Source of the DNA: Candidatus Adlerbacteria bacterium
GTDB lineage: Bacteria > Patescibacteriota > Minisyncoccia > Phycocordibacterales > SBAW01
DNA length: 64,000 bases
Assembly: GCA_026397405.1 (NCBI GenBank)
Contig: JAPLUW010000001.1
Span: 239,825 to 303,824, forward strand
Reading direction: 5' to 3'
The position numbers were made by a program, and so were the translations under genes. This document shows positions 40,778 to 62,239 of the stretch, piece by piece; positions within the stretch are counted from its first letter, which is position 1, and each line of letters opens with the position of its first letter. Below the pieces are notes generated by a model. The model was not told where the DNA came from. It worked only from the letters and a program-made list of their open reading frames with translations, and searched no databases.

Positions 40778-41272
40778 TTGAAGATTAAGCGCCTACCGCT
40801 CTATAAGTACGAGCTAACCAAGCTCGTACTTTACTGGTCTCTCCTGCCGCTGTCCTTCTGGGCATTCAGCATGATGGTCCAGTACTGCCCCCAAGCTGTG
40901 CTGGCGGTGACGAGCGTCGTCAAGCCGGTCTTGGCTTGGCTGAGCCACTACTTCTTGGACTTGCTTTGGAACCTCACCGTTCCCGAGCCTGTCCGACAGC
41001 AGGTGAACCAGCTAGGTGGGTTCCTGGCTCCGCTGGCCAAGCCCCTCGCTAAGGGCATTGCCTGGGGCAGCCAGAAAGTGGCGGAGGTAATGGATGACCG
41101 AGCTAAGGCTGCTCTAAGCCTTGCGTTCGGCGGGTTCATCCTGATCTCGCTGCTCCCCAGGCTGCTGCGCTTGGCAGTAATGCCCTGGGTCTATGCCAGG
41201 CTGGTGAAGGACATTCTCTCCAACACCAGCCAAGAAGAGCTCCTCGCGGAGCTCGAACGCAGGAAGAGCTAA
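40778..41272 (+). CDS. GC-rich small membrane protein, unknown function (TTG start)
   Basis: 164 aa with 3 predicted TM. Codon third positions are visibly GC-rich compared with neighbours. It has its own promoter and terminator. Confidence 0.5.
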   Translation: MKIKRLPLYKYELTKLVLYWSLLPLSFWAFSMMVQYCPQAVLAVTSVVKPVLAWLSHYFLDLLWNLTVPEPVRQQVNQLGGFLAPLAKPLAKGIAWGSQKVAEVMDDRAKAALSLAFGGFILISLLPRLLRLAVMPWVYARLVKDILSNTSQEELLAELERRKS

Positions 41273-41301
41273 CCCCTCTCCTCCGTTCACAACATCGCGA
41301 C

Positions 41302-41337
41302 CGCCGTCCCTTAAACAAGGACGGCGTTTCTATTTCT
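41302..41337 (+). terminator. rho-independent terminator
   Basis: CGCCGTCC-CTTAAACAA-GGACGGCG followed by TTTCTATTTCT. Confidence 0.6.
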
Positions 41338-41347
41338 ACTAATTTCC

Positions 41348-41376
41348 ATTGACGCACATCTATTTCAAATATATGG
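41348..41376 (+). promoter_or_regulatory. promoter-like element TTGACG-N17-TATGGT
   Basis: Good -35 and a weaker -10 upstream of a GTG-start mini-ORF that carries the same leader module. Confidence 0.4.
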
Positions 41377-41433
41377 TTATGGTGAAATTGTTACCCAAGG
41401 GATTTTCCGAGGGTGGTTGAAAAGGGAGGAAAA

Positions 41434-41571
41434 AGTGAAGTTTATTCTCTCGTGGGTTAAGAGCCTCTGGTCCCGTTACCAGATTTTTAGACTCCAAAGA
41501 GAAGCTTCTGGGTTCGGCTCGGCTGCCGAGCCTTGGGCAGATCCGCCGCCTCAAATTCTGAGGCCTGAATA
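41434..41571 (+). CDS. 45-aa peptide ORF (GTG start) with an amphipathic N-terminus and a Pro-rich C-terminus
   Basis: VKFILSWVKSLWSRYQIFRLQREASGFGSAAEPWADPPPQILRPE. It is preceded by the AGGGAGG Shine-Dalgarno and followed by a strong terminator. Confidence 0.35.
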
Positions 41572-41596
41572 GACTTTGCCCCCCCCCAATAGCAAA

Positions 41597-41634
41597 ACCG
41601 CCGACCTTTCGGGGCCGGCGGTTTTTTCTTTTTG
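41597..41634. terminator. strong rho-independent terminator (convergent with the NYN gene 3' end)
   Basis: AACCGCCGACC-TTTC-GGGGCCGGCGGTT followed by TTTTTTCTTTTT. Confidence 0.7.
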
Positions 41635-41637
41635 TAA

Positions 41638-42285
41638 TTAGATATTTTCTGAATCGCTGTCGTCGTAGACTTCTTGGCCGACATCGACTCCTTCGTCTTC
41701 GATGGGAGTGGGGCCTGGTTTTGCTCCGCCGCCAAAGCCAGGGATTGAAAATCCGCGGCCTGCTCCCCCGCCACCTTTGTAGTTAATAAGGTAGTTGCGT
41801 GGGTTGTCGCACATGTCTATAAAGTCGTCGGTCACTTCGCGCAGTTGGCTCGACGACGACTTACCAAAGGAAATAACTTCCACTTGGCAGCCGCGTGCGT
41901 AGCGCAAATATTCAACAAGCGGGACAAAGTCGCCGTCGCCGGTACCAAGGACTATGGTGTCGAGCTTTTCGGCCATTGCAATGGCGTCAATTGCCATGCC
42001 CATGTCCCAGTCGGCTTTTTTAGCGCCGCCGGCAAAGATTTTAATATCCTTTACTTTTGTCTCGATGCCGAGCTTGTTTAATGCATCAAAAAAGCTCTTT
42101 TCTTCTTCGCTTTCGGTGCGGATAACATATGCCACTGCGCGTACAAGTACGCGGCCTGCAAGAGCTTCCTTAACGACGTTACCGAAGTTAACTTTAGCTT
42201 TGTAAAGGTTTTTTGCGCTGTGGTAGAGGTTTTGCGTGTCTATAAAAATGCCGACGCGCTGGCTTTTGTGTTTAATGATTGCCAT
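41638..42285 (-). CDS. NYN/LabA-like PIN-fold domain protein with a Gly-rich acidic tail
   Basis: RVGIFIDTQNLYHSA and GDGDFVPLVEYLR match the NYN domain. Confidence 0.8.
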   Translation of the reverse strand: MAIIKHKSQRVGIFIDTQNLYHSAKNLYKAKVNFGNVVKEALAGRVLVRAVAYVIRTESEEEKSFFDALNKLGIETKVKDIKIFAGGAKKADWDMGMAIDAIAMAEKLDTIVLGTGDGDFVPLVEYLRYARGCQVEVISFGKSSSSQLREVTDDFIDMCDNPRNYLINYKGGGGAGRGFSIPGFGGGAKPGPTPIEDEGVDVGQEVYDDSDSENI

Positions 42286-42413
42286 ATAAATATGAACTGC
42301 TTAAAAAATGAACGGTTATTAAAATACGAACTGACTAAATAAAAGGCCTTACTCTATTGTATACGAACAAAAAAGAAGCACTGGTGCCCTACTGCGTAAA
42401 AAAATGAAGAAGA

Positions 42414-42680
42414 TTATTTCTTCAAACCCAACTTTTTAACAATAGCGGTGTGGCGCTTTTTGTCACTGTTTTCCAAATACTTCAAATGTGTGCGGCGGTC
42501 TGCAACCATCTGCAAAAGGCCACGGCGTGAGTGCTTGTCCTTCAAGTGTTTTTTCAAATGGTTGGCGAGTTCTTCAATGCGTTCGCTCAACACGGCAATT
42601 TGCACCTCGGCAGAGCCGGTGTCGGTGGCATGGATGCCTGTTTCTTTGATTATTTTGGCCTTTTTCTTCGTAGTCAGCAT
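42414..42680 (-). CDS. rpsO: 30S ribosomal protein S15
   Basis: 88 aa; HSRRGLLQMV and a C-terminal LGLKK. Start chosen at the internal Met. Confidence 0.9.
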   Translation of the reverse strand: MLTTKKKAKIIKETGIHATDTGSAEVQIAVLSERIEELANHLKKHLKDKHSRRGLLQMVADRRTHLKYLENSDKKRHTAIVKKLGLKK

Positions 42681-42733
42681 GGCCCATATGGTAGCACAGG
42701 CTCGTGTTTTTTGCAAGAGGGTCTATATAAAGT

Positions 42734-42785
42734 AGAAAACCCGGCAGCTTCCCTTCCCTGGTTGAATAGGGAGAGGAAAGCTACC
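42734..42785. other. long imperfect hairpin upstream of rpsO and downstream of the GC-rich minus-strand ORF
   Basis: CCCGGCAGCTTCCCTTCCC-loop-GGGAGAGGAAAGCTACCGGG. Confidence 0.4.
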
Positions 42786-42815
42786 GGGTCGCCTGCGCTA
42801 ACCACAGACAGGCTG

Positions 42816-43226
42816 CTAGAACCGTACGACGAAAGTGAGGGGTGGATTGCGCCGACGCCGCCACCATCGCCGCCACCCGATCCTTCCTGGAGGAGGGTGA
42901 GAGCCCACTATTTCCGCGTCCTCTCTGTTCAGAAAGGGTCGCAGCACCCAGCTCCAAATCACTTTGTAGGCCACGAAGATCGTGGCAGTGATCGCGGAAC
43001 CGGCGATGGCGGATGTTGCCAGCTCATTGGACCCCATCCAGAGAGGGAGTCCGAGCGTCCTCATGTAGATGTACATAAGCACGTTAACGACAGCCAAGAG
43101 GGCTGTCCAATGGAGTAATTTTCGCACGAGAGGGTACTCCTTATTGGCTTGGCAGCAACGCTTAATGCGCGCCATTTGAGGTGAACAAGCCGGTATAAAT
43201 CTATACATCTTTTGTATTTTTGTCAA
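42816..43226 (-). CDS. GC-rich small membrane protein (hypothetical)
   Basis: Two TM helices and an Arg/Trp-rich C-terminus. Codon usage is atypical. Confidence 0.4.
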   Translation of the reverse strand: MTKIQKMYRFIPACSPQMARIKRCCQANKEYPLVRKLLHWTALLAVVNVLMYIYMRTLGLPLWMGSNELATSAIAGSAITATIFVAYKVIWSWVLRPFLNREDAEIVGSHPPPGRIGWRRWWRRRRNPPLTFVVRF

Positions 43227-43259
43227 GTACGTCTAAGCCCCATAATATAAAGGTACAAT

Positions 43260-44174: not shown

Positions 44175-44179
44175 ACCTT

Positions 44180-44862
44180 TTATTTTTTACTGCCAAAAAT
44201 TGCAACAAAAAGCCGTGTATTTGGGTCGCGGGATATTTTCCCTAAGGTTTCTATTTTCTCAACTTCCAAACCTGCGTGTTGCAATGCTTCCACCATTTCT
44301 TTCTGTGAATGTTGATACATGGTGTTTCGAGAAAGAGGATTAACTGGAATTTTTACTTTTCCGATAAGCAGCTTTCCTACCCTTTCAGTATCTGAGTACA
44401 TACTTTCCCATGCATCGTAGGCTTCTGGATTTGTGGTAATAATAAGAAATTTTCCGTCCGATTTAAGCACTCTATATAGTTCTTGAGAAGCGATACCCAA
44501 ATTTCTAAGTGGAACCATACAGTTATCGAAAAACAGCCGGCCATCGAATTACTCTCAATTGGCAGTTGATAAGCATTCCCTGTTAAGAATTTCCTATCAG
44601 AACGTGAGTAACGTTCTATTGCACGTTCAGTAAGCACCACTGAAGGTTCTATTCCAACGTAGTTTGTGTCTTTCTGATATGAAATTTGTTCTGACGCTAC
44701 TCCTTGTCCGGAGCCAATATCAAGAATTGTTCCGTTTATTCCTTCGCTCCATCTTTTTAGTAGTGGATAAATTTCATTATCGCGGATAAGTCCTTTCTCT
44801 CCTTCTACACTTCTAATCCATTCTCGGGCTACCTTTTCATCTTCAAAGGGATTCTCTTCCAT
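44180..44862 (-). pseudogene. class I SAM-dependent methyltransferase disrupted by a frameshift (two overlapping ORFs)
   Basis: ORF 44377..44862 carries motif I ILDIGSGQG and ends in out-of-frame junk. ORF 44180..44518 carries the C-terminal half. The region is AT-rich. Confidence 0.5.
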
Positions 44863-44942
44863 GCGTGAAGTTTACATTATTTAAAAAATTCTTCGACATG
44901 CTCTGGAACATGGCGGAATAACCCAGCAGGCGATTCTGCTGA

Positions 44943-44974
44943 ATTGAAAAGAAAAACGCTCCAGTTACGGAGCG
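44943..44974 (-). terminator. rho-independent terminator of the 191-aa gene
   Basis: CGCTCC-AGTTAC-GGAGCG followed on the minus strand by a TTTTTCTTTT run. Confidence 0.55.
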
Positions 44975-44983
44975 CTTCGGTTT

Positions 44984-45559
44984 CTATTGCCAGACCCCTT
45001 CGGGCGAGGGCAGGTTTACTGCTTCGGCAAGTGCGAGCAGCGCGGCGTTGAACCTACTCTTCCATTCGTTATGCTCGTCTTTGTATCCGTTTCTTCTGTT
45101 GAACGGCAAGGAGAGCGCTGTGGTTCCGCCACCACCGAGAAGTTTTACTAACTCGTTGTTTTTGTGGTCGGCGTAGACCGGCAGAGAAATACCTTCGTTT
45201 GGGTACTCTGTCCGTACAGCCAGCAGTGAATCCCTTTCGCTGTCTATTCCGTGCGTATAGGTGTAGACGATGCCGTCGGCCACCAGACGAATGTCGAAAC
45301 GAAGTAGCTCATGCTTTTTCCGGCGGTCGTTCCACGGGGCCACCTTCCAGACGCCGAGAACTATCCCACTCTTTTGTTTAATTTCGTGCAGTGTCGCCTT
45401 CTCGAAGAGTTCCTGTACCCACGCTGTGGGCAGCGCATCTACCTGGGGTGCCTGGTCAACGAACACAGGTGTGTTTGTCGGAACAAAGTACGTTATAGAA
45501 AGGAATGCTCCAACCAGGGTGGCAATTCCCACAGCAAGACGTTTTCCGTAACGTGACAT
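44984..45559 (-). CDS. GC-rich membrane-anchored hypothetical protein
   Basis: N-terminal TM (LAVGIATLVGAFLSITYFV) with no recognised domain. Confidence 0.45.
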   Translation of the reverse strand: MSRYGKRLAVGIATLVGAFLSITYFVPTNTPVFVDQAPQVDALPTAWVQELFEKATLHEIKQKSGIVLGVWKVAPWNDRRKKHELLRFDIRLVADGIVYTYTHGIDSERDSLLAVRTEYPNEGISLPVYADHKNNELVKLLGGGGTTALSLPFNRRNGYKDEHNEWKSRFNAALLALAEAVNLPSPEGVWQ

Positions 45560-45692
45560 CGATACCTCCTGGGTCTATCCGCTCTTTTTATACTTGGTTT
45601 TGTACATCTCCACAAGGAAGATATTGCCCAGGGTGTCTACATTGACTTGTGGGCAGTAAAAAATTAGTGTTACGCGCAGAAGTCCACCAACA

Positions 45693-46445
45693 TTGGGGAG
45701 TCCCATGCAAAAAGTTTGTCTAGTAACGGGCGGTTCGCGGGGTATTGGCGCAGCGACTGCGCTACTCTTGGCAGGCAAGGGCTACAATATCTGCGTCAAT
45801 TATCGAACCAACAAAACAAAGGCGCAGGTCCTTGTTGAGAAGATTAGAAATAAGGGGGTAAAAGCCATTGCGGCGAAGGCGGATGTTTCCGACCCACGCC
45901 AGGTCGATAGACTTTTCCGTACCATAGACGATAATCTCGGCAGGCTAACGGCTTTGGTCAATAACGCGGGGGTTGCAGGGAGCCGCAAAAAATTTCTCGA
46001 GGTTTCCGACGCTGACTTTGATGCGGTGCTGGACGTGAATTTTAAAGGTACTGTCCACTGCACGCGACATGCATTGCAGAGAATGGCTCTGTCTCGCGGA
46101 GGTTCGGGCGGGGCTATCGTCAACATATCATCTACGGTAACGACGACGGGTGGCATCGATCTCGTTGCCTACGTTGCGAGCAAGGGGGCAGTAGAGGCCT
46201 TCAGCTTGGCTGTTGCAAAAGATTATGCCAAGGAAGGAGTTCGCATAAACGTGGTGCGACCGAGCATCGTTGCAACTGAACAGCAGCCCCTCGAAGACCT
46301 GGCTTGGTTGGAGAGAACAAAGGCTTCCATTCCTGTGCGCCGATTAGGAGAACCTGAAGATATTGCGAAGGTTATAGCGATGCTTCTCTCCGACGAAGCC
46401 GCGTTCATGGTTGGTTCGGTTGTCGATGTAACAGGCGGCCGATAA
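45693..46445 (+). CDS. short-chain dehydrogenase/reductase (SDR), 3-oxoacyl-ACP reductase-like
   Basis: TGGSRGIG, NNAG and YVASKGAV are present. Fairly GC-rich. Confidence 0.85.
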   Translation: MGSPMQKVCLVTGGSRGIGAATALLLAGKGYNICVNYRTNKTKAQVLVEKIRNKGVKAIAAKADVSDPRQVDRLFRTIDDNLGRLTALVNNAGVAGSRKKFLEVSDADFDAVLDVNFKGTVHCTRHALQRMALSRGGSGGAIVNISSTVTTTGGIDLVAYVASKGAVEAFSLAVAKDYAKEGVRINVVRPSIVATEQQPLEDLAWLERTKASIPVRRLGEPEDIAKVIAMLLSDEAAFMVGSVVDVTGGR

Positions 46446-46455
46446 CTACTCTACG

Positions 46456-46489
46456 CAGCCACCTCACACGGGTGGCTGTTTTTCTTTTC
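46456..46489 (+). terminator. rho-independent terminator after the SDR gene
   Basis: CAGCCACC-TCACACG-GGTGGCTG followed by TTTTTCTTTT. Confidence 0.7.
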
Positions 46490-46512
46490 ATTCAGCAGAA
46501 TCGCCTACGGGG

Positions 46513-47025
46513 TTAAAATTCTACTTCTGTATATTCAAACTTCTCAACCGCAAAAGGTTTTTCGATGCCGCTAAAGTAACACGTGCCCTCTATTGTTTTG
46601 CCTTGCTGCAACACCAGCGGCACCCAGTGCGTGTCCGATGGCCACATGTCGTCTATGGGTAAATTTTTTAATTCATGCCACGCCGGCAGCGACATCTCGC
46701 GTGTTTCAATAGGCTCGCCAGAGAATTTGTTTGCAATAAATACGTGCACGTCGTGGTCGTACGCTGGAACATCTTTAAAACGGAAGAGTACATGTGCGAC
46801 TTTTTTCAAATCTTCCTGCCGTACGTCTAAACCGCATTCTTCTTTTGCTTCGCGACACGCACTTGCTTCAACGGTTTCCCCTTCTTCTACTCCTCCGCCA
46901 AACCCGTTCCAATATCCCGCTCCAAATGTTTTGCCGGGCCGTTCCTTCTTTTTTCCAAGCAACACTTTACTTCCTTTGTGGATATATAAGAGATTCACGA
47001 GCCTCATATATAAAGTGTACTCCAA
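46513..47025 (-). CDS. NUDIX hydrolase
   Basis: Nudix box GGGVEEGETVEASACREAKEECGL. Confidence 0.8.
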   Translation of the reverse strand: MEYTLYMRLVNLLYIHKGSKVLLGKKKERPGKTFGAGYWNGFGGGVEEGETVEASACREAKEECGLDVRQEDLKKVAHVLFRFKDVPAYDHDVHVFIANKFSGEPIETREMSLPAWHELKNLPIDDMWPSDTHWVPLVLQQGKTIEGTCYFSGIEKPFAVEKFEYTEVEF

Positions 47026-47048
47026 AAAGAAAAGCCCCTTCCTTTCAG

Positions 47049-47384
47049 TTAGGGCTTCTGCTGCGCGGCGAACCAGGTGTCGAGCACGGTCTGGGCCTGT
47101 TCCAGAGTGTCGTAGTAGCCGGTGGGGCTACCATCGACGACTGCACTTTCGTGCAAGGTGCCGTCCGAGTGGAGATACTGGGACTTCCCCCGCTCGGGTT
47201 TTTCAGGCGCCGCTACTAAGCGGTGGATGAAAAACTTGTCGAAGTATGGGGAATCCCTCCCCGTCCCTTGTGTACCGACCCTGAAAGGGCTTGGAAGTTT
47301 TGATTTCGTCTCGAGCATACTTCCCTCCCGTGAAGACCAAATTGGTATCAAGGGCAATTCTAGACGTCGCGGTCTATTTGTCAA
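47049..47384 (-). CDS. GC-rich hypothetical protein
   Basis: 111 aa with no recognised domain. It overlaps the ORF-track extension of xth only. Confidence 0.35.
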   Translation of the reverse strand: MTNRPRRLELPLIPIWSSREGSMLETKSKLPSPFRVGTQGTGRDSPYFDKFFIHRLVAAPEKPERGKSQYLHSDGTLHESAVVDGSPTGYYDTLEQAQTVLDTWFAAQQKP

Positions 47385-48241: not shown

Positions 48242-48253
48242 CTTAAACCTCGC

Positions 48254-48964
48254 CTACTTATTTAGAGCAAAAGGATTGAAGTTGGTTCCGTGGTCGTACG
48301 TATCGAGCCCTTCTTTGTGTTTAATAATACGTATAACTTTTCGTGTTACGGGAAGCGCGAGTATTTCCCACAGAGTACAAAAGACAACGGTTGTTGTGAT
48401 AAGTGGCACAAGTTCGCTAAAGGTAAACCATCCGGCAAAATAAAACGCGATAAAGAATGCCAGCCCATTGTCGACTATCTGTCCAAAGAACGTCGATATA
48501 GTGAGTCGCGCACTAATATATCTGCCTTCGTTCCAGAGTTTCATCTTGGCAACAATATACGAATTTGTAAGTTCTCCACAGAAAAACGCAAAAATAAAAC
48601 CGATGGCGACGACGGGTGCAGACCTGAAGATTAAATTATACGAGTCGTTATATTCGAACGAGGGGTTTGGGATATAGGTATAGATAGATGCAAGCGTGCC
48701 TGCGAGCAACATGCAGCTAAATCCGGTCCACACAATTTTCCGAGTGACTCGGTAGCCATACACTTCAGTGTAAATATCCGCGAAGATGTAGACCAATGGG
48801 TATGCAAGTGCCCCGACCGAAAAGACAAGATGGCCTACGTAGAATGTTTTGAGTGCTGTAAACATGCCCACCACTAAAATGGTGACCCAGACCATGCCGA
48901 ATATTCCCAAGTATTTATGGGGCTGGATTGCCGAAACAACGGGTTCGGTGATTAAATTTTTCAT
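48254..48964 (-). CDS. YhhQ/VUT-family queuosine-precursor transporter
   Basis: 236 aa with 6 TM. AYPLVYIFADIYTEVYGY matches DUF165/YhhQ. Confidence 0.8.
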   Translation of the reverse strand: MKNLITEPVVSAIQPHKYLGIFGMVWVTILVVGMFTALKTFYVGHLVFSVGALAYPLVYIFADIYTEVYGYRVTRKIVWTGFSCMLLAGTLASIYTYIPNPSFEYNDSYNLIFRSAPVVAIGFIFAFFCGELTNSYIVAKMKLWNEGRYISARLTISTFFGQIVDNGLAFFIAFYFAGWFTFSELVPLITTTVVFCTLWEILALPVTRKVIRIIKHKEGLDTYDHGTNFNPFALNK

Positions 48965-49125
48965 GGCCTCAGTAATTTCAAGTGTAGAGGAATTCCAAGA
49001 TTCCGCTGTTTTTATTTAAATTTCTCACCAGTTCTAATTTTGCTTTTATTTCCAATAGTATTTACACGCCCATATGTCCAAAAAATGGACACAAGAGCGG
49101 AAGTTTTGTATTATGTACGGTACGT

Positions 49126-49887
49126 ATGTTGTGGAATGAAGAACAGCGGCAGGCACTTGGGTTGAAGAAAAAAGAGCAGCGGTTGTTGGACGCGCTGCAT
49201 AAAAAAGGAGTACTCAACACTATGGAGTTGGCGTTTGAAGCTAAGCTCCCTCGTGTTACGGCCATGCGGTTGCTCAAAATTTTGCGCGAGCGTGGATTTG
49301 TTGCCCGGCAAACATTGTTAAACGAAGTGCGTTGGTCGCTGGTGCGGCCGGAGCTCCACATAAAACGTTTGCAAAAAATTTTTGCCGACATGCCCGGGAG
49401 TTCTGGAAAGACCACACTCCCCCTCTCTGACGTTGCACAGGTCACTGTGTTTCGTGGAGCAGACGAGATGTACCAAACTAACGTGAAATTTCTTGCGGCT
49501 CACGCAGGCGAGCGTTTGTATGCAATAGAGCCCAGCGGTATGTGGCGACACATAGTGCAGGTGCCTGTCGAAAAGTGGTTGCATGTAAACCATCTTATCG
49601 GGCAAAAGAAAATTGTTGTGGAGGCTATTGTGGAAGAAGATTTTGAAATACAGATATACAAATACGCGAATAAATATCTTTTAGAAAGTCTGACCGGGCT
49701 TACAAGCGAACTCCATAGTATTCCCAAGGGATATTTAAAATCTTCAACCGAAGTGCTTATATTCCGTGACCAAGCACTCTTCCTCGACTGGGAACAATTG
49801 GTTGGTGTTGAAATAAAAAACTCAAGCACCGTGCATTTGCTTAAAGGGATGTTTACACTTTTAAAATCACAGAGTCGACGAATTTAG
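49126..49887 (+). CDS. TrmB-like winged-helix transcriptional regulator
   Basis: N-terminal wHTH (LLDALHKKGVLNTMELAFEAKLPRVTAMRLLKILRERGFV). Confidence 0.5.
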   Translation: MLWNEEQRQALGLKKKEQRLLDALHKKGVLNTMELAFEAKLPRVTAMRLLKILRERGFVARQTLLNEVRWSLVRPELHIKRLQKIFADMPGSSGKTTLPLSDVAQVTVFRGADEMYQTNVKFLAAHAGERLYAIEPSGMWRHIVQVPVEKWLHVNHLIGQKKIVVEAIVEEDFEIQIYKYANKYLLESLTGLTSELHSIPKGYLKSSTEVLIFRDQALFLDWEQLVGVEIKNSSTVHLLKGMFTLLKSQSRRI

Positions 49888-50126
49888 AAATTTTTATAGG
49901 TGTCCTCATTTCGGCGACTTATTTCTATTATCTGAATAGTGTCCGCACGTTTCTGGTAGATAATTCGTATACTCTGCACGCGCACGCGGAAGATATCATC
50001 AAAACCTTTCAATTTTTTAATATCAAGGTCCTGGGTATTTCCTGAAAGTACTATTTGAATCGTTTCCCGGACAGTTCCCCGCTCTTTTGGCGAGAGTCTC
50101 GCTAGAAATTTTTGAATTTTATCCAT
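49884..50126 (-). CDS. type II toxin, RelE/ParE family
   Basis: 80 aa; KKLKGFDDIFRVRVQSIRIIYQ. It overlaps the antitoxin gene by 8 nt. Confidence 0.7.
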   Translation of the reverse strand: MDKIQKFLARLSPKERGTVRETIQIVLSGNTQDLDIKKLKGFDDIFRVRVQSIRIIYQKRADTIQIIEISRRNEDTYKNF

Positions 50127-50370
50127 CCAATTTCTTCAGGGCAGCAAGAACATCCCTTCCAGAGACGCCGTTTTTGTTGATTTCTGTAAAGTCTATGACT
50201 GTTTCCCAGCCCATCTCTTCACTGTCTACAGGCATAAGACGGAAGATTGGTGTCGAGCGGCGAAAGACAGTTATAGAGTCGCCTTTGTCTACAGCATCAA
50301 TATACTTCTCCATATTTTCACGGAGTTCTTTCAAACCAACCGTAGTTTGTTTTGTAGACTTGGTATTCAT
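50119..50370 (-). CDS. type II antitoxin, Phd/YefM-like
   Basis: 83 aa, placed directly upstream of the toxin. Central VFRRSTPIFRLMPVDSEE motif. Confidence 0.65.
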   Translation of the reverse strand: MNTKSTKQTTVGLKELRENMEKYIDAVDKGDSITVFRRSTPIFRLMPVDSEEMGWETVIDFTEINKNGVSGRDVLAALKKLDG

Positions 50371-50376
50371 AGATAT

Positions 50377-50398
50377 AAGTTTATCTTAAGGTAAACTT
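50377..50398. promoter_or_regulatory. Palindrome AAGTTTA-N8-TAAACTT directly upstream of the antitoxin start, a candidate TA operator
   Basis: Perfect 7-bp inverted repeat, 7-28 nt upstream of the start codon. Confidence 0.4.
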
Positions 50399-50418
50399 TG
50401 TGTCAATTAGGTGAATAG

Positions 50419-50454
50419 ATAAAAAGAAAAACGCCGAGACAAGAAGTCCGGCGT
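50419..50454 (-). terminator. rho-independent terminator of the small membrane gene
   Basis: ACGCCG-N12-CGGCGT followed on the minus strand by TTTTCTTTTT. Confidence 0.5.
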
Positions 50455-50479
50455 TTGGAGTGAAAACTGAGAGGTTATT

Positions 50480-50743
50480 TTAATTCCAGTACTTCTCATT
50501 CATATAGCCCCACAGATATAAGTTCAAAAGGGGCACAATAATGGCAAGCACCAGACCAACGAGGAGGAAAATCGACCTTCTCCTTCCACCGTTTGCCGTG
50601 GTGCCTCTCATGACCCATGGAATAAGAGGATTCATAAGAAGGGTACTGATGAACGCTGGTAGAATAATTAGCTTAAGCAGCAACATAGCGCACTCCTCTG
50701 CCTTGCTGGGCGATTGTTTCGACGAACTCGGTACTGCATACAT
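50480..50743 (-). CDS. small membrane protein (hypothetical)
   Basis: Two TM helices. Confidence 0.4.
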   Translation of the reverse strand: MYAVPSSSKQSPSKAEECAMLLLKLIILPAFISTLLMNPLIPWVMRGTTANGGRRRSIFLLVGLVLAIIVPLLNLYLWGYMNEKYWN

Positions 50744-50830
50744 AATAGCACTTTAAAACCTTGATGTCAATAAATACTGATGATAAAAAATTGACACAAA
50801 AGCATTATAAATGCTAGAGTTTTAAGGAAG

Positions 50831-51595
50831 ATGTCAAAAAATATTGATGAAAATACAAATAAGGAGCTTTTAAGCAATTTGGAGGCTCTGGGCCTGTCCG
50901 ACAAGGAAGCTCGGGTGTATTTGGCCTTACTTCCCCGCCAAGATACGGGTACTTCCAACTTAATTAGGGCAACGGGGCTGCACGGGCAGTTTGTATACCA
51001 AGCCTTGGAGCGGCTGGAAGAGTTGGGGCTGGCCAAGCATGTCGTGCAAAGCGGCCGCAAGAAATTTAGCGCTGGCTCGCCCGAGCGAATACTCTCACTT
51101 GTTGAAGAAAAAAAGTTGGCGGCCCAGGCAGTGGTGCGGCAGCTCAAAGAGCAGTTTGCCGGCAAGCACGAACAGAGCTTCGAGGTCTTTCAAGGTGACT
51201 CGGCGTTTGTCGCCCACGAGTTTGCGTTGCTTGAAGCAATGCCTGAGGGGGGCGTTATTGATGTGCTCGGGGGCGGAGGTGACAAATATGTGGGGTTGAT
51301 GGGTCACGAGATGAACGAGTACGAAAAACTGCGTGTAAGCAAAAAAGTAGCTGTGCGGTACATCAGCACAGCTGGGAACCATAATTATTTGAAGATAATG
51401 GCTCAAACACGTGAGTTTTTTGACTACCGTGTTCTGCCCGACGCCGCGTCAGGCGTAGACACTGACATTTTGATGGATAAAATAATCTTCCATCTCTTTG
51501 GAGAGCCGGTTGTCTCTTTTACCTTTACAAACAAAGTGATATCGGACGGATACCGGAGGTTTTTTGAGGTGTTGTGGAACCTTTCGAGTAAGTAA
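50831..51595 (+). CDS. TrmB-family transcriptional regulator
   Basis: LGLSDKEARVYLALL N-terminal TrmB signature. Confidence 0.75.
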   Translation: MSKNIDENTNKELLSNLEALGLSDKEARVYLALLPRQDTGTSNLIRATGLHGQFVYQALERLEELGLAKHVVQSGRKKFSAGSPERILSLVEEKKLAAQAVVRQLKEQFAGKHEQSFEVFQGDSAFVAHEFALLEAMPEGGVIDVLGGGGDKYVGLMGHEMNEYEKLRVSKKVAVRYISTAGNHNYLKIMAQTREFFDYRVLPDAASGVDTDILMDKIIFHLFGEPVVSFTFTNKVISDGYRRFFEVLWNLSSK

Positions 51596-53626: not shown

Positions 53627-53697
53627 GCGGATATGGTTTAGTGGTAGAACACATCCTTGCCAAGGATGAGACGGGAGTTCGATTCTCCCTATCCGCA
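53627..53697 (+). tRNA. tRNA-Gly (anticodon GCC)
   Basis: Acceptor GCGGATA/TATCCGC, anticodon stem CATCC/GGATG, loop TTGCCAA, T-arm GGGAG-TTCGATT-CTCCC. Confidence 0.9.
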
Positions 53698-53974
53698 CTA
53701 GGAACGACCAAAATGAAAGATTTCTTTCATTTTTAAGAGACGACGTGCGAAACAAGCTCTGCTTATCCGCACTAAGTACGATATAAGATAAAAGACGTCT
53801 ATGGTGTGGACAATAGATCTCTTGAAAAATAAAGACATATCCACTTTTCTGGGGATAACTATGGGGACAGGTGTATTAAAGACGTGTCTTTAAGTGGGTT
53901 TTATGGCTTATAATGGCATGTAGTGTTTCTAAGATGACACTTTATAGGTTATTTGGTTCACATGAAACAGTTTC

Positions 53975-55481: not shown

Positions 55482-55515
55482 CAAGGACCTCCACAAGGGG
55501 TCCTTGTTTCGTTTC
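55482..55515 (+). terminator. rho-independent terminator after the methyltransferase gene
   Basis: CAAGGACC-N9-GGTCCTTG followed by TTTCGTTTC. Confidence 0.5.
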
Positions 55516-55558
55516 GGGAGACTATTTTAGAGTTCGTTCAAACGCGCTAAGGCGCACA

Positions 55559-56932
55559 ATGGGAGAGAAGATAATGGCTGAATTGGAACAGTTGGCAAAA
55601 GGCCAAGAGACATCGTTCGATGTGCTCGATGCCCACCTTGGGCAGCCGACGCCCGTCTCGTTCGGACCGATGGTGGTCAATGACACCATTCGGTCCGATA
55701 TGGGGCCGTTCAAGAGCTTGCCCGAATACCGGGTGGTCTATCCGCAAACGGTCGTTCAAGCTCTGGCTGTGCTGGTTGCGGAATACAACGCGGCATTCGC
55801 GCCACTTGTGGCTGCTAACCAGGAAACGGACGCCGACTACAGGCACTGCTTCGTCAATGGGGCGCCGATCAACTTCGGCGTTCAGATCGACATGCCGGCC
55901 TTGCCCGAGGCGTTTCTCGCGCTTGCCGTTAGTATGTCGGTGGAACAGGTTGTCGAGATCTTACGGAGACGAATCTTCGAGATCGAAAACTCGCTGGCGA
56001 TGTACCAGCTGCTTAGGAGGCAATTTGCCAGGGGAGGAATTTCCTTCTTTGAAAGTCGCTTCGCCGACTTCATGGACACTCTTCGGCGACATACCGGCAA
56101 GCCAGTTGCTCTGCTGGCTGTCACCGACCAGAAGTACGAGGCGATGCGTAGCTCGGAATTCGGGAAGTCTCTACACGACAAGCTTCCCAAGGAAGAGTTG
56201 CTCGATATATCAGGGTTTGACGCGATGTTCAGCCCTGACGGCTTTTCCCGGCATCTTAGGCAAAACGGCGGGGAAAGTGCATACGCGCTGTATGCACGTA
56301 CGTCCGACCCTGTTGCGGTCTTGAGGGATCCCACGGTTCGTGTGGGACATGAACTTCTTGGCAACAATGAGGTTCGGCACAAGGTGCGGCGGGATGCACT
56401 GACCTTCAATGTTGATACGCCGACTGCAGAACCCTGGCATCGGCTGAATGACACCAAGATGTACATGCCCGCTATGGGTATGGGCGTCTTGCTCCCAGGT
56501 CACGTCGACCTTACAACGTTCCTGAAACGCAGCGCGACGAAGGAGTATTTCGAAGCGTGTGGGGTCGACCCTGAGGCCGTAATCGGAGGGCAAGCTGCTC
56601 TGCGAGCAAAGCCCGCACTCGGAACGTATGGCTGCTATGGCCATATCCACGGCCGTATCGGTGTGAACAAATTTGAGGGCAACCTTAATCGCGAACGGCA
56701 GCGCAGGGGCTCCTACATCCTGCAACCCGAACTGCCTCTTCTCAAGTTGGTCAATGAGCTCGACGAAGAGGACTCCTACATTGCTATCGACCGGAACTTC
56801 CTCGGTTGGAACGGCAATGGATACGACTTCCTTGGTGGATTCCGGTCACTTATGCCGGACAAAACCATGGAAGCGCGTAAGGGTCGAAATCACGGCAGCA
56901 AAGAGACCCTCTGGGCCGAAGTGGTGACCTAA
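55559..56932 (+). CDS. GC-rich 457-aa hypothetical protein, possibly a ligase-like enzyme
   Basis: A long ORF with clearly higher GC than its neighbours. I could not assign a family by eye. Confidence 0.55.
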   Translation: MGEKIMAELEQLAKGQETSFDVLDAHLGQPTPVSFGPMVVNDTIRSDMGPFKSLPEYRVVYPQTVVQALAVLVAEYNAAFAPLVAANQETDADYRHCFVNGAPINFGVQIDMPALPEAFLALAVSMSVEQVVEILRRRIFEIENSLAMYQLLRRQFARGGISFFESRFADFMDTLRRHTGKPVALLAVTDQKYEAMRSSEFGKSLHDKLPKEELLDISGFDAMFSPDGFSRHLRQNGGESAYALYARTSDPVAVLRDPTVRVGHELLGNNEVRHKVRRDALTFNVDTPTAEPWHRLNDTKMYMPAMGMGVLLPGHVDLTTFLKRSATKEYFEACGVDPEAVIGGQAALRAKPALGTYGCYGHIHGRIGVNKFEGNLNRERQRRGSYILQPELPLLKLVNELDEEDSYIAIDRNFLGWNGNGYDFLGGFRSLMPDKTMEARKGRNHGSKETLWAEVVT

Positions 56933-57027
56933 AACCCATTTCGATCGTTTGTACCGGACATTGGTTAGAAGAGGAAACTCTTTCTGCCAATGTCCGGTAT
57001 TTTTTTACCCGCATAGGCAAACATGGT

Positions 57028-58137
57028 ATGAATAGAGACATGAAAGAAGATATTTTAAATTTGGCACAAGAATTTGTGTCTATTCCATCTAACCCGGACA
57101 ATACAGAGGCACTCGCTACTATTTTAAATCTTGCCCTTTCAAAACTTTCTAATTTCACTATTGAGCGTTTTGAACGAAACGGTGCTACAAGCGCACTAGT
57201 ATATGTAGGTCCTGTACGGCCAAAAAAGTTTAAAGTATTGCTTAACGGCCATTTGGACATAATCCCGGGTAAGCCGGAGCAGTACACCCCAGTGGTAAAA
57301 GGTAAACGGTTGTACGGCGTTGGAGTTATGGATATGAAGGCAAACCTCGCCAGTATGTTGTATGCCTTTGCGGAAACTGCACATAAAGTCTCGTACCCAC
57401 TAGGGCTTCAACTCGTTACAGACGAGGAGCTCGGTGGTTTTGACGGAACAAAATATCAAGTCGAACAAGGCGTGAGAGCGGATTTTGTTTTAACCAGCGA
57501 ACCAACTAACTTTGATATTGTGTACAAAGCACGTGGAATTATATGGTTAAAAATCTCCTCTCGTGGCAAAACAGCACACGGGGCATACCCATGGCGCGGA
57601 GAAAATGCCATTTGGACGATGCACGAGTTTCTTGCTGCGTTGAAAAAACAATATCCTATTCCTACTAAAGAAAAATGGGTAACGACGGTCAACGTTGCAA
57701 AAATTGAAACGAACAATCAGTCGCTTAATAAAATTCCTGACGATTGTACTGTTTCTTTAGATATTCGATACATCCCGGAAGATACAAACGTACTACAAAA
57801 AATCAAAAAGCTTTTACCAAAAGGTTTTTCTATGGAAGTACTTACGGACGAGCCAGCGCTTGATACTGATTCCAATAATTCCTACATACAAGCGCTTCAA
57901 GGCGTAAGTTCGAAAATTCTTAAGAAAAAAATTACCAAACGAGGTGCGTTCGGGTCGTCAGACGCAAGACATTTTGGACGATACAAATGTCCTGGTATCG
58001 AATTTGGCCCAATAGGGGAGGGTATCGGTAGCGACAATGAGTGGGTAGATATCCCAAGTTTAGAAAAATTTAATACTATACTCACAACGTTCCTTTTGGA
58101 ATTAGATATATCATCTGTTCCAGTAAAAAAGCGCTAA
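57028..58137 (+). CDS. M20-family metallopeptidase (ArgE/DapE-like)
   Basis: LLNGHLDIIPG, GVGVMDMKANLAS, and a stop/start overlap with the downstream gene. AT-rich codon usage. Confidence 0.85.
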   Translation: MNRDMKEDILNLAQEFVSIPSNPDNTEALATILNLALSKLSNFTIERFERNGATSALVYVGPVRPKKFKVLLNGHLDIIPGKPEQYTPVVKGKRLYGVGVMDMKANLASMLYAFAETAHKVSYPLGLQLVTDEELGGFDGTKYQVEQGVRADFVLTSEPTNFDIVYKARGIIWLKISSRGKTAHGAYPWRGENAIWTMHEFLAALKKQYPIPTKEKWVTTVNVAKIETNNQSLNKIPDDCTVSLDIRYIPEDTNVLQKIKKLLPKGFSMEVLTDEPALDTDSNNSYIQALQGVSSKILKKKITKRGAFGSSDARHFGRYKCPGIEFGPIGEGIGSDNEWVDIPSLEKFNTILTTFLLELDISSVPVKKR

Positions 58138-59282: not shown

Positions 59283-59311
59283 GTACTAAAGTATACCAAT
59301 TTGGACTTTTG

Positions 59312-59382
59312 TGCGGGATGGGAGAATCGAACTCCCGCCATCAGTTTGGAAAACTGATGTTCTACCATTAAACTAATCCCGC
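59312..59382 (-). tRNA. tRNA-Gly (anticodon TCC)
   Basis: Reverse complement GCGGGAT..TCAGT-TTTCCAA-ACTGA..GGGAG-TTCGATT-CTCCC-ATCCCGC-A. Confidence 0.9.
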
Positions 59383-59467
59383 TTTTCTATATAAATCTTA
59401 TCCTACAACGCCTTTTGCTTTTCAGCTAGCAATTTGTTCGAGCTATGTTTAGCGCATTGATATGGTC

Positions 59468-59531
59468 AAAACCGTGAAAATGTAAGAAAAAAAGACATTT
59501 TTCACGATTATAGTTGATAAAACCGTGAAAA
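59468..59531. repeat. Repeat array: AAAACCGTGAAAA twice in direct orientation, plus an 11-bp palindrome CGTGAAAATGT / ACATTTTTCACG
   Basis: Read directly from the sequence: copies at 59468-59480 and 59519-59531, inverted copy at 59495-59506. Confidence 0.5.
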
Positions 59532-59672
59532 AAGCATCTGCTGGTGTAGCTGGCAATTCTCCCATCCCGCATATGAATGATTTCACTTGACCTTCACTTG
59601 GTTGGGTATATACTATATCTACATTCGGCATTTGGCCGCGACCCCCGCCCGCAAGGGCGGGGGAACATGTTT

Positions 59673-60059
59673 TTATAGGTACAATTTCTGAAATCCTTCT
59701 TTTACTTTTGCAAAATTATCGGTATCGATCTGTCCCAACTTTGAATGTAGGCGCCGGTAGTCGATAGTACGTATCTGATTAAGACAGATGTATTCATCTT
59801 GTTCGCCAAATTGGACATGTACGTACCAGCTCCCGTCTCGTTTTTGAGTAGTAGTTGGAGCGATAAGATAAAATCCGTGTGCTAACTTTTTGATAATTAA
59901 TACAGGTCGTGAAAAACGTTCGCTTTTCCCGTTCATTTCCGAACCCACATTTTCGCCAAGGCTTGCCCACCACAAATCTCTTTCTGAAACAAACGGAGCG
60001 CGATGTTCATTATTGTGGAGTTTTTCTTTGAGCCCTATCCACTCAAAAAACCGTTTCAT
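59673..60059 (-). CDS. MazF/PemK-family endoribonuclease toxin with no adjacent antitoxin
   Basis: RDLWWASLGENVGSEMNGK..RPVLII...APTTT...YICLNQIRTIDYRRL matches the MazF fold motifs. Confidence 0.7.
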   Translation of the reverse strand: MKRFFEWIGLKEKLHNNEHRAPFVSERDLWWASLGENVGSEMNGKSERFSRPVLIIKKLAHGFYLIAPTTTQKRDGSWYVHVQFGEQDEYICLNQIRTIDYRRLHSKLGQIDTDNFAKVKEGFQKLYL

Positions 60060-60099
60060 ATAAAATTATTGTAGCACCCTGCTAATCCGCACCAGAGTT

Positions 60100-61533
60100 T
60101 TAAAATGTTGGATAGAGAACAAACGAAGGCTGGTAGTTAATTGCCTGAATATACGGCTTGCCTGTGTAGACGGCATGAACTTTTGCCATTGCAAATGTTT
60201 CTTTATACAAAAGATTGGAATGTAGCCACCCGTGCGACGCAACGTTGATAAGAATTGTGACACCTGCGTTAGACGCTTCTTTATATCCAAAAGGAGCAAA
60301 AACTTCTGAACACGCAAAAACAGCAAGGTTGGCAGATTTCCACGTAAATGTGCGAGAAGAAAAAGACTCCTCCGAAGGGACATATTCTTTATTCGCGACA
60401 ATGTCACGGATCTCTTTTCCAAATCCAAGAGATTTCAGAATAAAAATAAGTGATTGAGGGAGATATTCGCCAAATGGCATAAGGTAGTGTTTCTCCTGGC
60501 GAGCAACCACAGTGCCACTTGTTCCGTCAAAAAATACTATAGTTCCTTGTCCGCCTGGTGTTGCTTCAGAGTCGACAAGAAGAGTATTAGTTTTTTTCAA
60601 CCCTTCTAACAATGTAGTACGGAGAGCGGGTGGAAGTAACATCTGGTTTCTAAGGAAGTGGAAATATTCTGGGAGGATAATAATATCGGGTTTTTGCTCT
60701 AAAGCTGTATTTATTTTACTTGCGAGAGATTTTTCACTGGCGAGAAGTTGTGCCTGAGTGTAATAAAGACTTGGATCGAGATGTGTAGAAATAGGCACAA
60801 TCCGGAGCCCATCAACCACTACCACCTTCGGATCGATCTCGACTTTTAAGGGGTTTGGGAGCCCAAACCCTACGGCAAATATGCATATGTATATGCCAAC
60901 AAAACTGTACGAGCGGGCTCTAGAAGATATTTTTGTGTGAGTTGCGGCTATATATAGGAAAGTGCCCAAAGTTGCCGCAAGCCAGCTCAAGGCATATACA
61001 CCACCTACCTGTGCAAACCACAAAAGGCCTGGCGACGCTGCAAAGGTGTAGCCAATAAAACCAAAAGAGAAGTCAGTTCCAAATGTAGACCCCGACCCCC
61101 ACATAACAAGAGAAAAGAGTGCGGCTCGCATAAGTTCGCCGGCTATCCACAAAAAAGGGGCGATACACAAAATCCAAAAAGTTTTTATGTAGGTGCGAAC
61201 CTGCAGCGCAAAAAGGCCGACCGTGGCTGCGAGTACGAGTGCGGACAAAAACCATACTCCAAATACAGCACAAACAGAAAATACTTGGTTATATATACCC
61301 ATTCGATCGAGAGGAAGCAGGGTTAGCACCCAACCTAAGGAAGAACCAATTATACAAAACCCAAAAATTGTCCCTAGGGTAAATGACTCACGTGCAGTGG
61401 AACGAGAGAGTATATATAAAAATAACGCAAACGCCGCTGGTACCACTGGCCACCCATAGGGAAAGTAAAAACTTAATCCAATGAAGGAGCCTGCAATTGC
61501 AGCAAGAAGAAGACGAAGTAGAAAAGTTTTCAT
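60100..61533 (-). CDS. lnt: apolipoprotein N-acyltransferase-like (polytopic N-domain + C-N hydrolase domain)
   Basis: C-terminal nitrilase-fold with Glu (IILPE) and Cys (FACSE) triad residues. Start trimmed to MKTFLLRLLLAAIAG; the upstream ORF extension is implausible. Confidence 0.75.
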   Translation of the reverse strand: MKTFLLRLLLAAIAGSFIGLSFYFPYGWPVVPAAFALFLYILSRSTARESFTLGTIFGFCIIGSSLGWVLTLLPLDRMGIYNQVFSVCAVFGVWFLSALVLAATVGLFALQVRTYIKTFWILCIAPFLWIAGELMRAALFSLVMWGSGSTFGTDFSFGFIGYTFAASPGLLWFAQVGGVYALSWLAATLGTFLYIAATHTKISSRARSYSFVGIYICIFAVGFGLPNPLKVEIDPKVVVVDGLRIVPISTHLDPSLYYTQAQLLASEKSLASKINTALEQKPDIIILPEYFHFLRNQMLLPPALRTTLLEGLKKTNTLLVDSEATPGGQGTIVFFDGTSGTVVARQEKHYLMPFGEYLPQSLIFILKSLGFGKEIRDIVANKEYVPSEESFSSRTFTWKSANLAVFACSEVFAPFGYKEASNAGVTILINVASHGWLHSNLLYKETFAMAKVHAVYTGKPYIQAINYQPSFVLYPTF

Positions 61534-61720
61534 CTGATAGTTTGTATGGAATACGATAGCAGATAATTCTAGGGCGAGAGAAAATTCAAAATATTTTTTA
61601 TTTTCGAAGCCTTCGAGGGCTGTCAACAGCAGTATATTGACAAAAATGCTAAAAACTGAATAATGATAGGTACTGTCCGGGATGTCCCTGGGCTTCGGAT
61701 ACTCCGAAAGGGAGAAGATC

Positions 61721-62239
61721 ATGTACCTCAAGAACCGCCTTTGTGTCCTTCTGGCCCTCGTGAGTGCGTTCCTCGTGAGCCCGATCATTGCGCAGGCGCA
61801 GCCCCCCGTGCAACAGGCTGCTGTCCCCGACAGCGCGCCGGCATCGATACTTCCAGCGGCTCCTGGCCTTGCTCTGGCACAGGTCCAGCAGCAGTGCCTG
61901 GCGTTCTTTGGCAAGAAGGTCACCTACACTGGCAGGACCCCCGAAGACGGCAAGGACTATACGCTCGTTCTCAGTTCCGAAGGGGAGATGCTCGTGCGAT
62001 ACGACCGTCCTGTGTGCAAGGTCGCATACGAATGGCGGAACGCTAGGCAAGAAGGTCGAAATGTCACCGTCGTCTTCGACGGGCGGGCTATCCTGGATGT
62101 CTGGCCCAAGGAGCCTGCTCTGGGCATGACGATGGTCATGAGCAACGACGGGAGCAGCCTGGTCTTTCTCAGGCGATTCGCCGACTACTACGGCAACAAG
62201 AAGATAGGCACTCAGTCGGGGACCTTCCTGCGGAAGTAG
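61721..62239 (+). CDS. GC-rich secreted hypothetical protein
   Basis: RBS AAGGGAGAAG, signal peptide MYLKNRLCVLLALVSAFLVSPIIAQA, and a strong terminator downstream. Confidence 0.5.
   Translation: MYLKNRLCVLLALVSAFLVSPIIAQAQPPVQQAAVPDSAPASILPAAPGLALAQVQQQCLAFFGKKVTYTGRTPEDGKDYTLVLSSEGEMLVRYDRPVCKVAYEWRNARQEGRNVTVVFDGRAILDVWPKEPALGMTMVMSNDGSSLVFLRRFADYYGNKKIGTQSGTFLRK

Follow-up and report, generated by a model that had tools for sequence, protein, structure and literature searches.

Does atypical base composition mark recently acquired genes in genomes of the candidate phyla radiation (CPR)? The question is raised by a 64,000-nucleotide stretch of a Candidatus Adlerbacteria chromosome (contig JAPLUW010000001.1, positions 239,825–303,824; hereafter the window), which includes the replication origin oriC and has an overall GC content of 48.2%. 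PNPase, DnaN and further proteins assign it to this lineage. The origin genes rnpA-yidC-jag and dnaA-dnaN lie at 13–17.5 kb of the window, next to a cluster resembling a type IV secretion system (T4SS). Between 40,778 and 62,239, a preliminary description had flagged a scatter of GC-rich and AT-rich open reading frames (ORFs) and read them as repeated small horizontal acquisitions, an interpretation that proved half right. The region is an ordinary flexible-genome mosaic, in which short variable slots interrupt a conserved backbone. The genes that deviate most are old and syntenic and stand under purifying selection, and several strain-specific insertions are near-normal in composition.

We assembled a gene model of 64 genes from ORFs, Pfam matches and public gene calls, calculated the GC content at third codon positions (GC3) of each gene, and expressed it as a z-score against a length-corrected reference of the 35 genes at 1–40.7 kb (mean GC3 0.475, between-gene standard deviation (SD) 0.039). 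The compositional patchiness after 40.7 kb is real and statistically strong, and in this the preliminary description was largely right. GC3 averages 0.467 (SD 0.050, 35 genes) before this point and 0.503 (SD 0.127, 29 genes) after it, with a 2.5-fold larger spread (Levene p = 8e-5). An absolute z-score of at least 2.5 is reached by 8 of 28 genes after 40.7 kb, where 0.35 would be expected (binomial p = 1.4e-9), and by just one of 35 genes before it (Fisher p = 0.008); the values of the atypical genes extend up to +5.5 and down to −3.4. GC3 jumps at gene borders and is flat inside genes. Tetranucleotide usage, proposed earlier as a check, is atypical as well after GC normalisation, and the most deviant 1.5-kb piece of the window, at 55501–57000, corresponds to orf457.

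Every ORF that had been flagged exists where it had been placed, and the properties ascribed to the group hold in part. Among the seven ORFs called GC-rich, orf164, orf185, orf457, orf111 and orf136m are GC3 outliers that lie outside the 35-gene reference drawn from the window, not from the whole genome; orf191 is marginal, and the gene of an SDR-family oxidoreductase (SDR) falls inside the reference (Table 1). Among those called AT-rich, a frameshifted methyltransferase pseudogene and the M20 deacylase gene are outliers, and RelE and Phd are not (GC3 0.383, z −1.4, and GC3 0.429, z −0.7, not significant given their short length). Lnt, orf428 and orf129, which had not been listed, are AT-rich outliers too, and low GC3 also occurs in the "core" half, in ksgA (0.370) and a T4SS pilin-like gene (0.340). 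Judged by transmembrane (TM) or signal-like segments and fold matches, the label of small membrane or secreted proteins suits orf164, orf136m, orf191 and orf185; it does not suit orf111, SDR or orf457. Terminators of their own, as had been claimed, accompany orf191, SDR, orf457 and orf185; none was found for orf136m or orf111.

Among sampled genomes, the closest is the metagenome-assembled genome (MAG) ELA416 (JBAXLB010000002.1), from which about 60 kb was recovered (loci L003, L083 and L088) and whose core DNA is about 84–92% identical to the window. Its counterpart of orf164, in the same position, shows 83% amino acid identity (GC3 0.747), that of orf457 96% (0.672) and that of the M20 deacylase 93.5% (0.385). 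A positional homologue of orf185, at 43–48% identity, has a GC3 of 0.757, compared with 0.758 in the window, and its fourfold sites are saturated (p4 0.63). The GC3 of Lnt is 0.371 in the window and 0.377 in ELA416. Ratios of nonsynonymous to synonymous substitution (dN/dS) against ELA416 are 0.06 for M20 and, for the ORFs with intact counterparts, 0.10 (orf457), 0.16 (orf164), 0.17 (orf191), 0.24 (SDR), 0.34 (orf136m) and 0.40 (orf185). Because the strongest outliers are syntenic in ELA416, have the same GC3 and show dN/dS of 0.06–0.40, their atypical composition is no sign that they were acquired recently.

The orf164 family has two other representatives among 1.84 billion proteins. All three members have equal length and an invariant C-terminal TM segment; the third homologue (locus L094) is 44% identical, adjoins NYN, has TTGACA...TATAAT upstream and a GC3 of 0.741. 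Fourfold sites shared between the three lineages (GC3 ~0.74–0.78) differ at 64–71%, the calculated saturation level at such base composition being ~0.70, yet they remain 65–77% GC. Since orf164 and orf185 both keep a high GC3 at saturated fourfold sites, their composition is no decaying foreign relic.

The family of orf457 is large and found across the CPR. In every case, namely four other CPR contigs and ELA416 (including L095, L096, L097 and L088), orf457 is followed by an M20 gene of ArgE/DapE type; in the window the partners of this conserved pair deviate oppositely, orf457 being GC-rich and M20 AT-rich. The GC3 of orf457 homologues is not elevated relative to neighbouring genes in L095 and L096, on which ground we rejected a high GC3 intrinsic to the family, and it is elevated in the Jorgensenbacteria contig L097 (0.754 vs a median of 0.555). 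With elevation confined to some CPR genomes, it is plausible that orf457 has been replaced by alleles of CPR lineages that differ in GC. No sequence match to orf457 was found in Pfam, NCBIfam or PDB, even with a 40-sequence profile. An AlphaFold2 model (pLDDT 92.8) gave 3n6x, glutathione synthetase, DcsG and Ddl as top Foldseek matches, all ATP-grasp ligases (prob 0.97–1.0), at low TM-scores of 0.26–0.42 and an rmsd above 11 Å. Based on this predicted fold, orf457 likely belongs to the ATP-grasp superfamily, and the pair looks like a conserved two-enzyme module.

The genes between the slots form a conserved core. From 40.7 kb the backbone runs pnp, NYN, rpsO, xerC, NUDIX, exoIII, TrmB2, cca and tRNA genes, and it continues with an rRNA methyltransferase, the ATP-grasp/M20 pair, a trypsin-like protease and Lnt. 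In a neighbourhood comparison of 80 loci around pnp from related genomes, NYN, rpsO and xerC are kept in 64–72 loci, exoIII in 36, TrmB2 in 16 and NUDIX in six; the closest relatives (L004, L005, L007 and L010) retain the order cca-TrmB2-exoIII-NUDIX-xerC-rpsO-NYN-pnp. The flagged ORFs are present in at most one other genome in this comparison. In those four relatives, these slots are occupied by small genes of other, unrelated kinds, several likewise GC-rich, and in L004 and L005 NYN directly abuts pnp, without orf164 between them.

Divergence along this backbone is uneven. Between the window and ELA416, the synonymous divergence (dS) of adjacent genes spans 0.13 to 1.7, a sign of mosaic recombination. 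Mosaic replacement is shown directly by a tRNA synthetase gene at 9694–10896 (minus strand; Pfam tRNA-synt_1b, tyrS/trpS), whose product is 62% identical to ELA416 (dS 1.6) beside neighbours of 96–100%; here a divergent allele has apparently taken the place of the core gene. From such sequence comparisons, small envelope proteins appear to evolve or swap fastest: orf136m is 35% identical to its ELA416 homologue and orf185 is little closer, with adjacent core genes at 69–100%. The T4SS-like cluster (17582–31097), which adjoins the origin genes, encodes PrgI, TraC-like, VirB4/TraG-type ATPase and T4SS pilin-like proteins and several large unknown proteins, some of them strongly diverged from ELA416 (51–73% amino acid identity).

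The genes missing in ELA416 are the methyltransferase pseudogene, orf111, a Vut1-TrmB1-RelE-Phd-orf87 block, and a PemK gene beside tRNA-Gly. The pseudogene, whose N-terminal ORF matches Pfam Methyltransf_25/11, has no counterpart in ELA416 or the 80 related loci, and orf111 has a 35–36% identical homologue in the same slot of L004 (GC3 0.67). The 2.45-kb block was identified by Pfam, NCBIfam and PHROG matches; Vut1 is a queuosine-precursor transporter and orf87 a membrane protein, and the composition is near normal save for the AT-leaning RelE. RelE matches phrog_1213 (E 1.2e-9), and Phd matches NCBIfam TIGR01552 (30.2 bits, cut-off 20.8) and, weakly, Pfam PhdYeFM; the two genes overlap by 8 nt (50119–50126) and carry the signatures of a type II toxin–antitoxin module. 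At the block edge, the first 8 codons of TrmB2 (50830–50853) are duplicated 67 nt upstream (50763–50786; 24 nt, 88% identical). This duplication may be shared with ELA416, as it lies in the stretch that aligns from window position 50695 onward.

The two tRNA-Gly genes, GCC (53627–53698) and TCC, are each inverted relative to ELA416 (L088 7977–8048 and 13778–13850), with the 5.6 kb between them colinear, and partial copies of tRNA-Gly 3' ends lie nearby, one of 24 nt in direct orientation (53758–53781) and the 16-nt inverted one (59556–59571). No direct repeats flank the slots, and this inverted 16-nt tRNA copy is the sole scar.

The divergent 1.6-kb orf191-SDR pair is exactly bracketed by 37-nt arms that are 84% complementary, where 0 matches are expected by chance. 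In ELA416 the arms are 89–95% conserved and the cargo between them is 73% identical; downstream of NUDIX in L004, L005, L007 and L010, which lack orf191-SDR, the arm is absent. A scan of JGI metagenomes recovered the 27-nt arm motif TTCAGCAGARTCRCCTRCNGGRTTA once more, on a Hainich groundwater contig (L098, 161–192), between the terminator of a cold-shock gene and the stop codon of a SET-domain gene. In all cases, the TTA/TAA that ends the motif serves as stop codon of the convergent gene next to it. The cassette has one insertion site, shared by the window and ELA416, with one further single arm in L098, and no target-site duplication was seen at its ends.

Table 1. Coordinates of slot genes and associated elements in the window, with third-position GC and z-score where available.
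Feature	Position	Strand	GC3 (z)	Remarks
Promoter-like site TTGACA-17-TATAAT	40690..40718	+		sigma-70 consensus 12/12, upstream of orf164
orf164	40778..41272	+	0.776 (+5.5)	lineage-restricted membrane protein, 2-3 TM-like segments; GC 0.584
orf136m	42816..43226	-	0.628 (+2.65)	small membrane protein
Methyltransferase pseudogene	44180..44862	-	fragments 0.29-0.34 (-3.0, -2.45)	class I S-adenosylmethionine type, frameshifted, two overlapping ORFs; GC 0.39
Left arm of 37-nt inverted repeat	44919..44955			brackets orf191-SDR
Terminator-like hairpin	44978-44953	-		after orf191
orf191	44984..45559	-	0.589 (+2.15)	N-terminally anchored protein; 65% amino acid identity to ELA416
SDR-family oxidoreductase (FabG-like)	45693..46445	+	0.538 (+1.26)	54% amino acid identity to ELA416 copy; single-member 90% cluster
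Terminator-like hairpin	46455-46479	+		after SDR
Right arm of 37-nt inverted repeat	46479..46515			final 3 nt form the stop codon of NUDIX
orf111	47049..47384	-	0.643 (+2.75)	soluble small protein; absent from ELA416
Strain-specific block: Vut1, TrmB-like regulator (TrmB1), RelE, Phd, orf87	48254..50743			236-aa methyltransferase in ELA416 slot
orf457	55559..56932	+	0.655 (+4.0)	ATP-grasp-like, unannotated CPR-wide family (~450 aa); GC 0.559
22-bp-stem hairpin and T7 run, intrinsic terminator-like	56952..57006	+		between orf457 and M20; 98/101 nt identical in ELA416
M20 deacylase, ArgE/DapE-family	57028..58137	+	0.357 (-2.5)	GC 0.408
tRNA-Gly(TCC)	59311..59382	-		candidate attachment site for PemK insertion; inverted in ELA416
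att-like scar	59556..59571	+		perfect 16-nt inverted copy of tRNA-Gly(TCC) 3' end, 228 nt off
PemK/MazF-like toxin gene	59673..60059	-		GC 0.40; absent from ELA416
Promoter-like site TTGACA-16-AATAAT	61637..61664	+		upstream of orf185
orf185	61721..62239	+	0.75-0.76 (+5.3)	secreted orphan, signal-peptide-like N-terminus; GC 0.60
Intrinsic terminator-like hairpin	62268..62294	+		after orf185

We propose that recombination probably swaps or inserts one gene, or one very small cassette, at a time in the slots of the conserved backbone. Its source would be the gene pool of the CPR, where genomes range from about 36% to 60% GC. The long-resident odd genes, GC-rich (orf164, orf136m, orf185 and orf457) or AT-rich (M20, Lnt and orf428), most likely entered long ago or have repeatedly been swapped as alleles within this pool. 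Conversely, the methyltransferase pseudogene, orf111, the Vut1-TrmB1-RelE/Phd-orf87 block and PemK at tRNA-Gly are recent, strain-specific gains or replacements, and the orf191-SDR cassette was probably acquired a single time, by an ancestor that the window organism shares with ELA416. The earlier idea of repeated small acquisitions thus survives for the genes absent from ELA416 and for the cassette, and fails for the strongest outliers, which are old. The absence of a single island was correctly recognised, related Adlerbacteria having a conserved backbone with different small genes per slot. To call this the accessory half of the window was an overstatement, as the region consists mostly of core genes with small variable slots. 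Horizontal transfer in Patescibacteria is reported to occur mostly within the phylum, and genomic islands have been described (PMC12455944).

Several observations weigh against this proposal. No donor has been identified for any atypical gene, and the proposal does not account for the persistence of a GC3 of ~0.75 in orf164 and orf185, which may stem from silent-site selection, biased gene conversion or repeated import from an unsampled GC-rich pool. In 49 related loci, variable segments have on average 3.7% lower GC than core genes; GC-rich fillers are therefore not the clade norm, and we rejected a GC-rich accessory pool of the clade for this reason. A regression slope of 0.56 lends weak support to a shared gene pool. 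The reference distribution comprises ~70 genes (64 in the window and 7 just beyond it), not the whole genome of 0.5+ Mb. Finally, given the setting of TTCAGCAGARTCRCCTRCNGGRTTA in L098, the arm motif could be a terminator-associated element instead of a mobility end.

Were each atypical ORF a separate, fairly recent import from a donor of other GC, its composition would not yet have drifted to that of its new genome. Their standing as GC3 and tetranucleotide outliers, and their absence from most related Adlerbacteria loci, agree with this. So does codon usage: in orf164 and orf185, C and G at third positions (C3 and G3) are both raised and A3 is ~0.10, as in a genome of roughly 60% GC, unlike the native genes that are likely highly expressed (rpsO, HU, NYN and RNase Y), in which C3 is up and G3 down. 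The same difference led us to reject ordinary translational selection as the source of the outlier GC3. Recent import is nevertheless unlikely in view of the syntenic ELA416 counterparts with the same GC3, the saturated fourfold sites of orf164 and orf185, the CPR-wide conservation of the orf457-M20 pair and the outcome of homology searches. Best-hit profiling, suggested earlier as a route to donors, left the two strongest outliers, orf164 and orf185, as orphans, with no donor or close relative in 1.8 and 5.8 billion proteins; a word-indexed search of the 5.8 billion returned for orf185 only itself. Neither family has a match in Pfam, PHROG or NCBIfam, a concatenated query of five small orphan proteins found no match in a homology search, and the 90% clusters contain either a single member or sequences from these Adlerbacteria MAGs alone. 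We also rejected a phage origin, RelE alone having a PHROG match and orf164, orf185 and the orf457 family having no relatives in IMG/VR. Alternatively, no transfer may be involved, and the composition may be intrinsic to each gene and kept by selection on synonymous sites (for expression level or mRNA structure) or on amino acid content. GC3 is indeed kept across lineages despite synonymous turnover, and the consensus promoters of orf164 and orf185 suggest high expression. This account is made rather doubtful by the codon pattern, unlike that of the native genes that are likely highly expressed, by the orf457 homologues in two other genomes whose GC3 is not elevated, by the GC-normalised tetranucleotide usage of orf457, which is atypical too, and by a patchy distribution among relatives that demands gain or loss. 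In a narrower form, it is a slim but genuine possibility that a gene-specific force on silent sites holds the promoter-equipped orphans (orf164, orf185 and perhaps orf136m) at ~75% synonymous GC in a genome of 48% GC, across several lineages and while synonymous sites turn over completely. If so, silent sites could be selected for GC, or alleles could keep being replaced from a high-GC pool not yet sampled, such as the host organism or a mobile element of these episymbionts. Persistently GC-rich orphan genes with promoter-like sites of their own are the one mildly unusual feature of the region.

Gene conversion biased towards GC, or repeated swapping of alleles at hot spots of recombination, might also raise and maintain the GC3 of slot genes. 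The uneven dS, the 35–48% identity of orf136m and orf185 next to far better conserved flanking core genes, as for swapped alleles, and the variability of the slots in all relatives would be expected from it. We consider it improbable: AT-rich outliers (M20, Lnt and orf428) occupy the same neighbourhood, the dS of orf164 (0.60) does not stand above that of the adjacent NYN (0.55), and no direct evidence supports biased conversion in this clade. That the ORFs are artefacts, either chance frames in GC-rich non-coding DNA or a metagenomic chimera, is largely refuted and retains hardly any probability. Stop codons are AT-rich, so long chance ORFs do arise in GC-rich DNA; several ORFs overlap at 61.6–62.3 kb, and the Logan gene caller skipped orf164 and orf136m. 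The GC-rich ORFs nevertheless show coding periodicity (GC1 > GC2 < GC3) in their frames and dN/dS of 0.10–0.40 with intact orthologues, and the orf164 family conserves its length and TM segment. The same sequence was obtained in independent assemblies of three sequencing runs, and an independent MAG has the same gene order. By these criteria the GC-rich ORFs are real protein-coding genes under purifying selection. A structured RNA behind the GC-rich stretches was rejected, as Rfam finds five tRNAs only.

Some gene boundaries and calls need revision. Promoter-like sites overlap the TTG starts of orf136m (43226–43198) and orf111 (47384–47357), so the likely starts shift to downstream ATGs, at 43175 for orf136m and at 47318 for orf111, whose product would then be 89 amino acids long. 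The ELA416 homologue of orf136m is a 95-amino-acid ORF with two TM segments and a GC3 of 0.66, preceded by a promoter and a ribosome-binding site of its own; rpsO beside it shows 100% identity to the window copy. Public (Logan) gene calls omit rpsO (42414–42716), orf164 and orf136m and place antisense ORFs there instead, at 42558–43118 (+) and 41114–41290 (−); the Logan-called plus-strand ORF 42531–43118 was rejected as antisense of rpsO. An NCBI MAG with NT019_ locus tags is identical to the window. The Logan contig SRR20698643_4948 is identical as well, save for a 48-bp in-frame indel at 29417, a case of population variation within a 701-amino-acid ORF (27642–29747, minus strand) for a large T4SS-cluster protein. 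Near the end of the window, orf129 (63597–63986, minus strand; GC2 0.69, GC3 0.28) begins with a hydrophobic segment and has a C-terminus rich in Gly, Ser and Cys; immediately beyond the window (L091 12333–14626) it adjoins genes of the YcaO and nitroreductase families. This neighbourhood may be a cluster for a thiazole/oxazole-modified peptide, of the ribosomally synthesized and post-translationally modified type, with its precursor.

The region provides a worked example of why, in CPR genomes, atypical GC3 should not be taken to mean recent horizontal transfer. It indicates that Adlerbacteria chromosomes vary via replacement of single genes in slots, not via large islands. It also offers leads for annotation, namely an ATP-grasp-like protein that accompanies an M20 deacylase across the CPR, and a set of fast-evolving small envelope proteins, and the small GC-rich genes mark spots where automated gene calling failed.

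Compared with a classical genomic island, the region shares the atypical composition. The absence from a close relative that is expected of an island was found for the methyltransferase pseudogene, orf111, the Vut1-TrmB1-RelE/Phd-orf87 block and PemK; orf164, orf185, orf457, M20 and orf191-SDR are all present in ELA416. No slot has an integrase or transposase of its own, or flanking direct repeats. The only recombinase gene in the region is xerC, whose product is 84–96% identical in 64 related loci, and dif/Xer-mediated integration at the slots flanking it was dropped, since oriC lies ~28 kb away, which makes a terminus site unlikely, and no repeated site was found. Integrative elements that target tRNA genes leave a duplicated tRNA 3' end as att sites. 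PemK resembles such elements in its place beside tRNA-Gly(TCC), in the 16-nt copy of the tRNA 3' end and in the absence of the insertion from ELA416; it differs from them in that the copy is inverted, an integrase is lacking and the tRNA gene is flipped relative to ELA416. The orf191-SDR cassette, in turn, resembles cassettes with terminal inverted repeats, of the kind of miniature inverted-repeat transposable elements, in being bracketed by 37-nt repeats, in arms that are better conserved than the cargo and in its absence at empty sites. Unlike them, it lacks a target-site duplication and a transposase, and its arms abut terminators and stop codons.

Bacterial ORFans, reportedly described by Daubin and Ochman in 2004 as short, lineage-restricted and usually AT-rich, are matched by orf164 and orf185 in length, in narrow lineage and in the lack of Pfam, PHROG and NCBIfam matches. 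In contrast to them, these two genes have a GC3 of ~0.75 vs 0.48 for the genome, are under purifying selection and have kept their composition through synonymous saturation. In the amino-group carrier protein pathway, LysX and LysK form a pair of an ATP-grasp ligase and an M20 deacylase. The orf457-M20 module is unlike this pair in the lack of a sequence-family match, in TM-scores of 0.35–0.41 and in that no carrier protein gene was seen; it is like it in the ATP-grasp-like fold of orf457, with matches to glutathione synthetase and glutathionylspermidine-synthase-like proteins, always followed by an ArgE/DapE-type M20. As a whole, the region can be set beside the integration hot spots and flexible islets between core genes that are a general pattern of bacterial pangenomes. 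Its units are smaller, one to five genes without an integrase or transposase of their own, and its most deviant genes are GC-rich old residents. It shares with flexible islets the different content between conserved flanks in relatives, the toxin–antitoxin modules and the insertion next to a tRNA gene.

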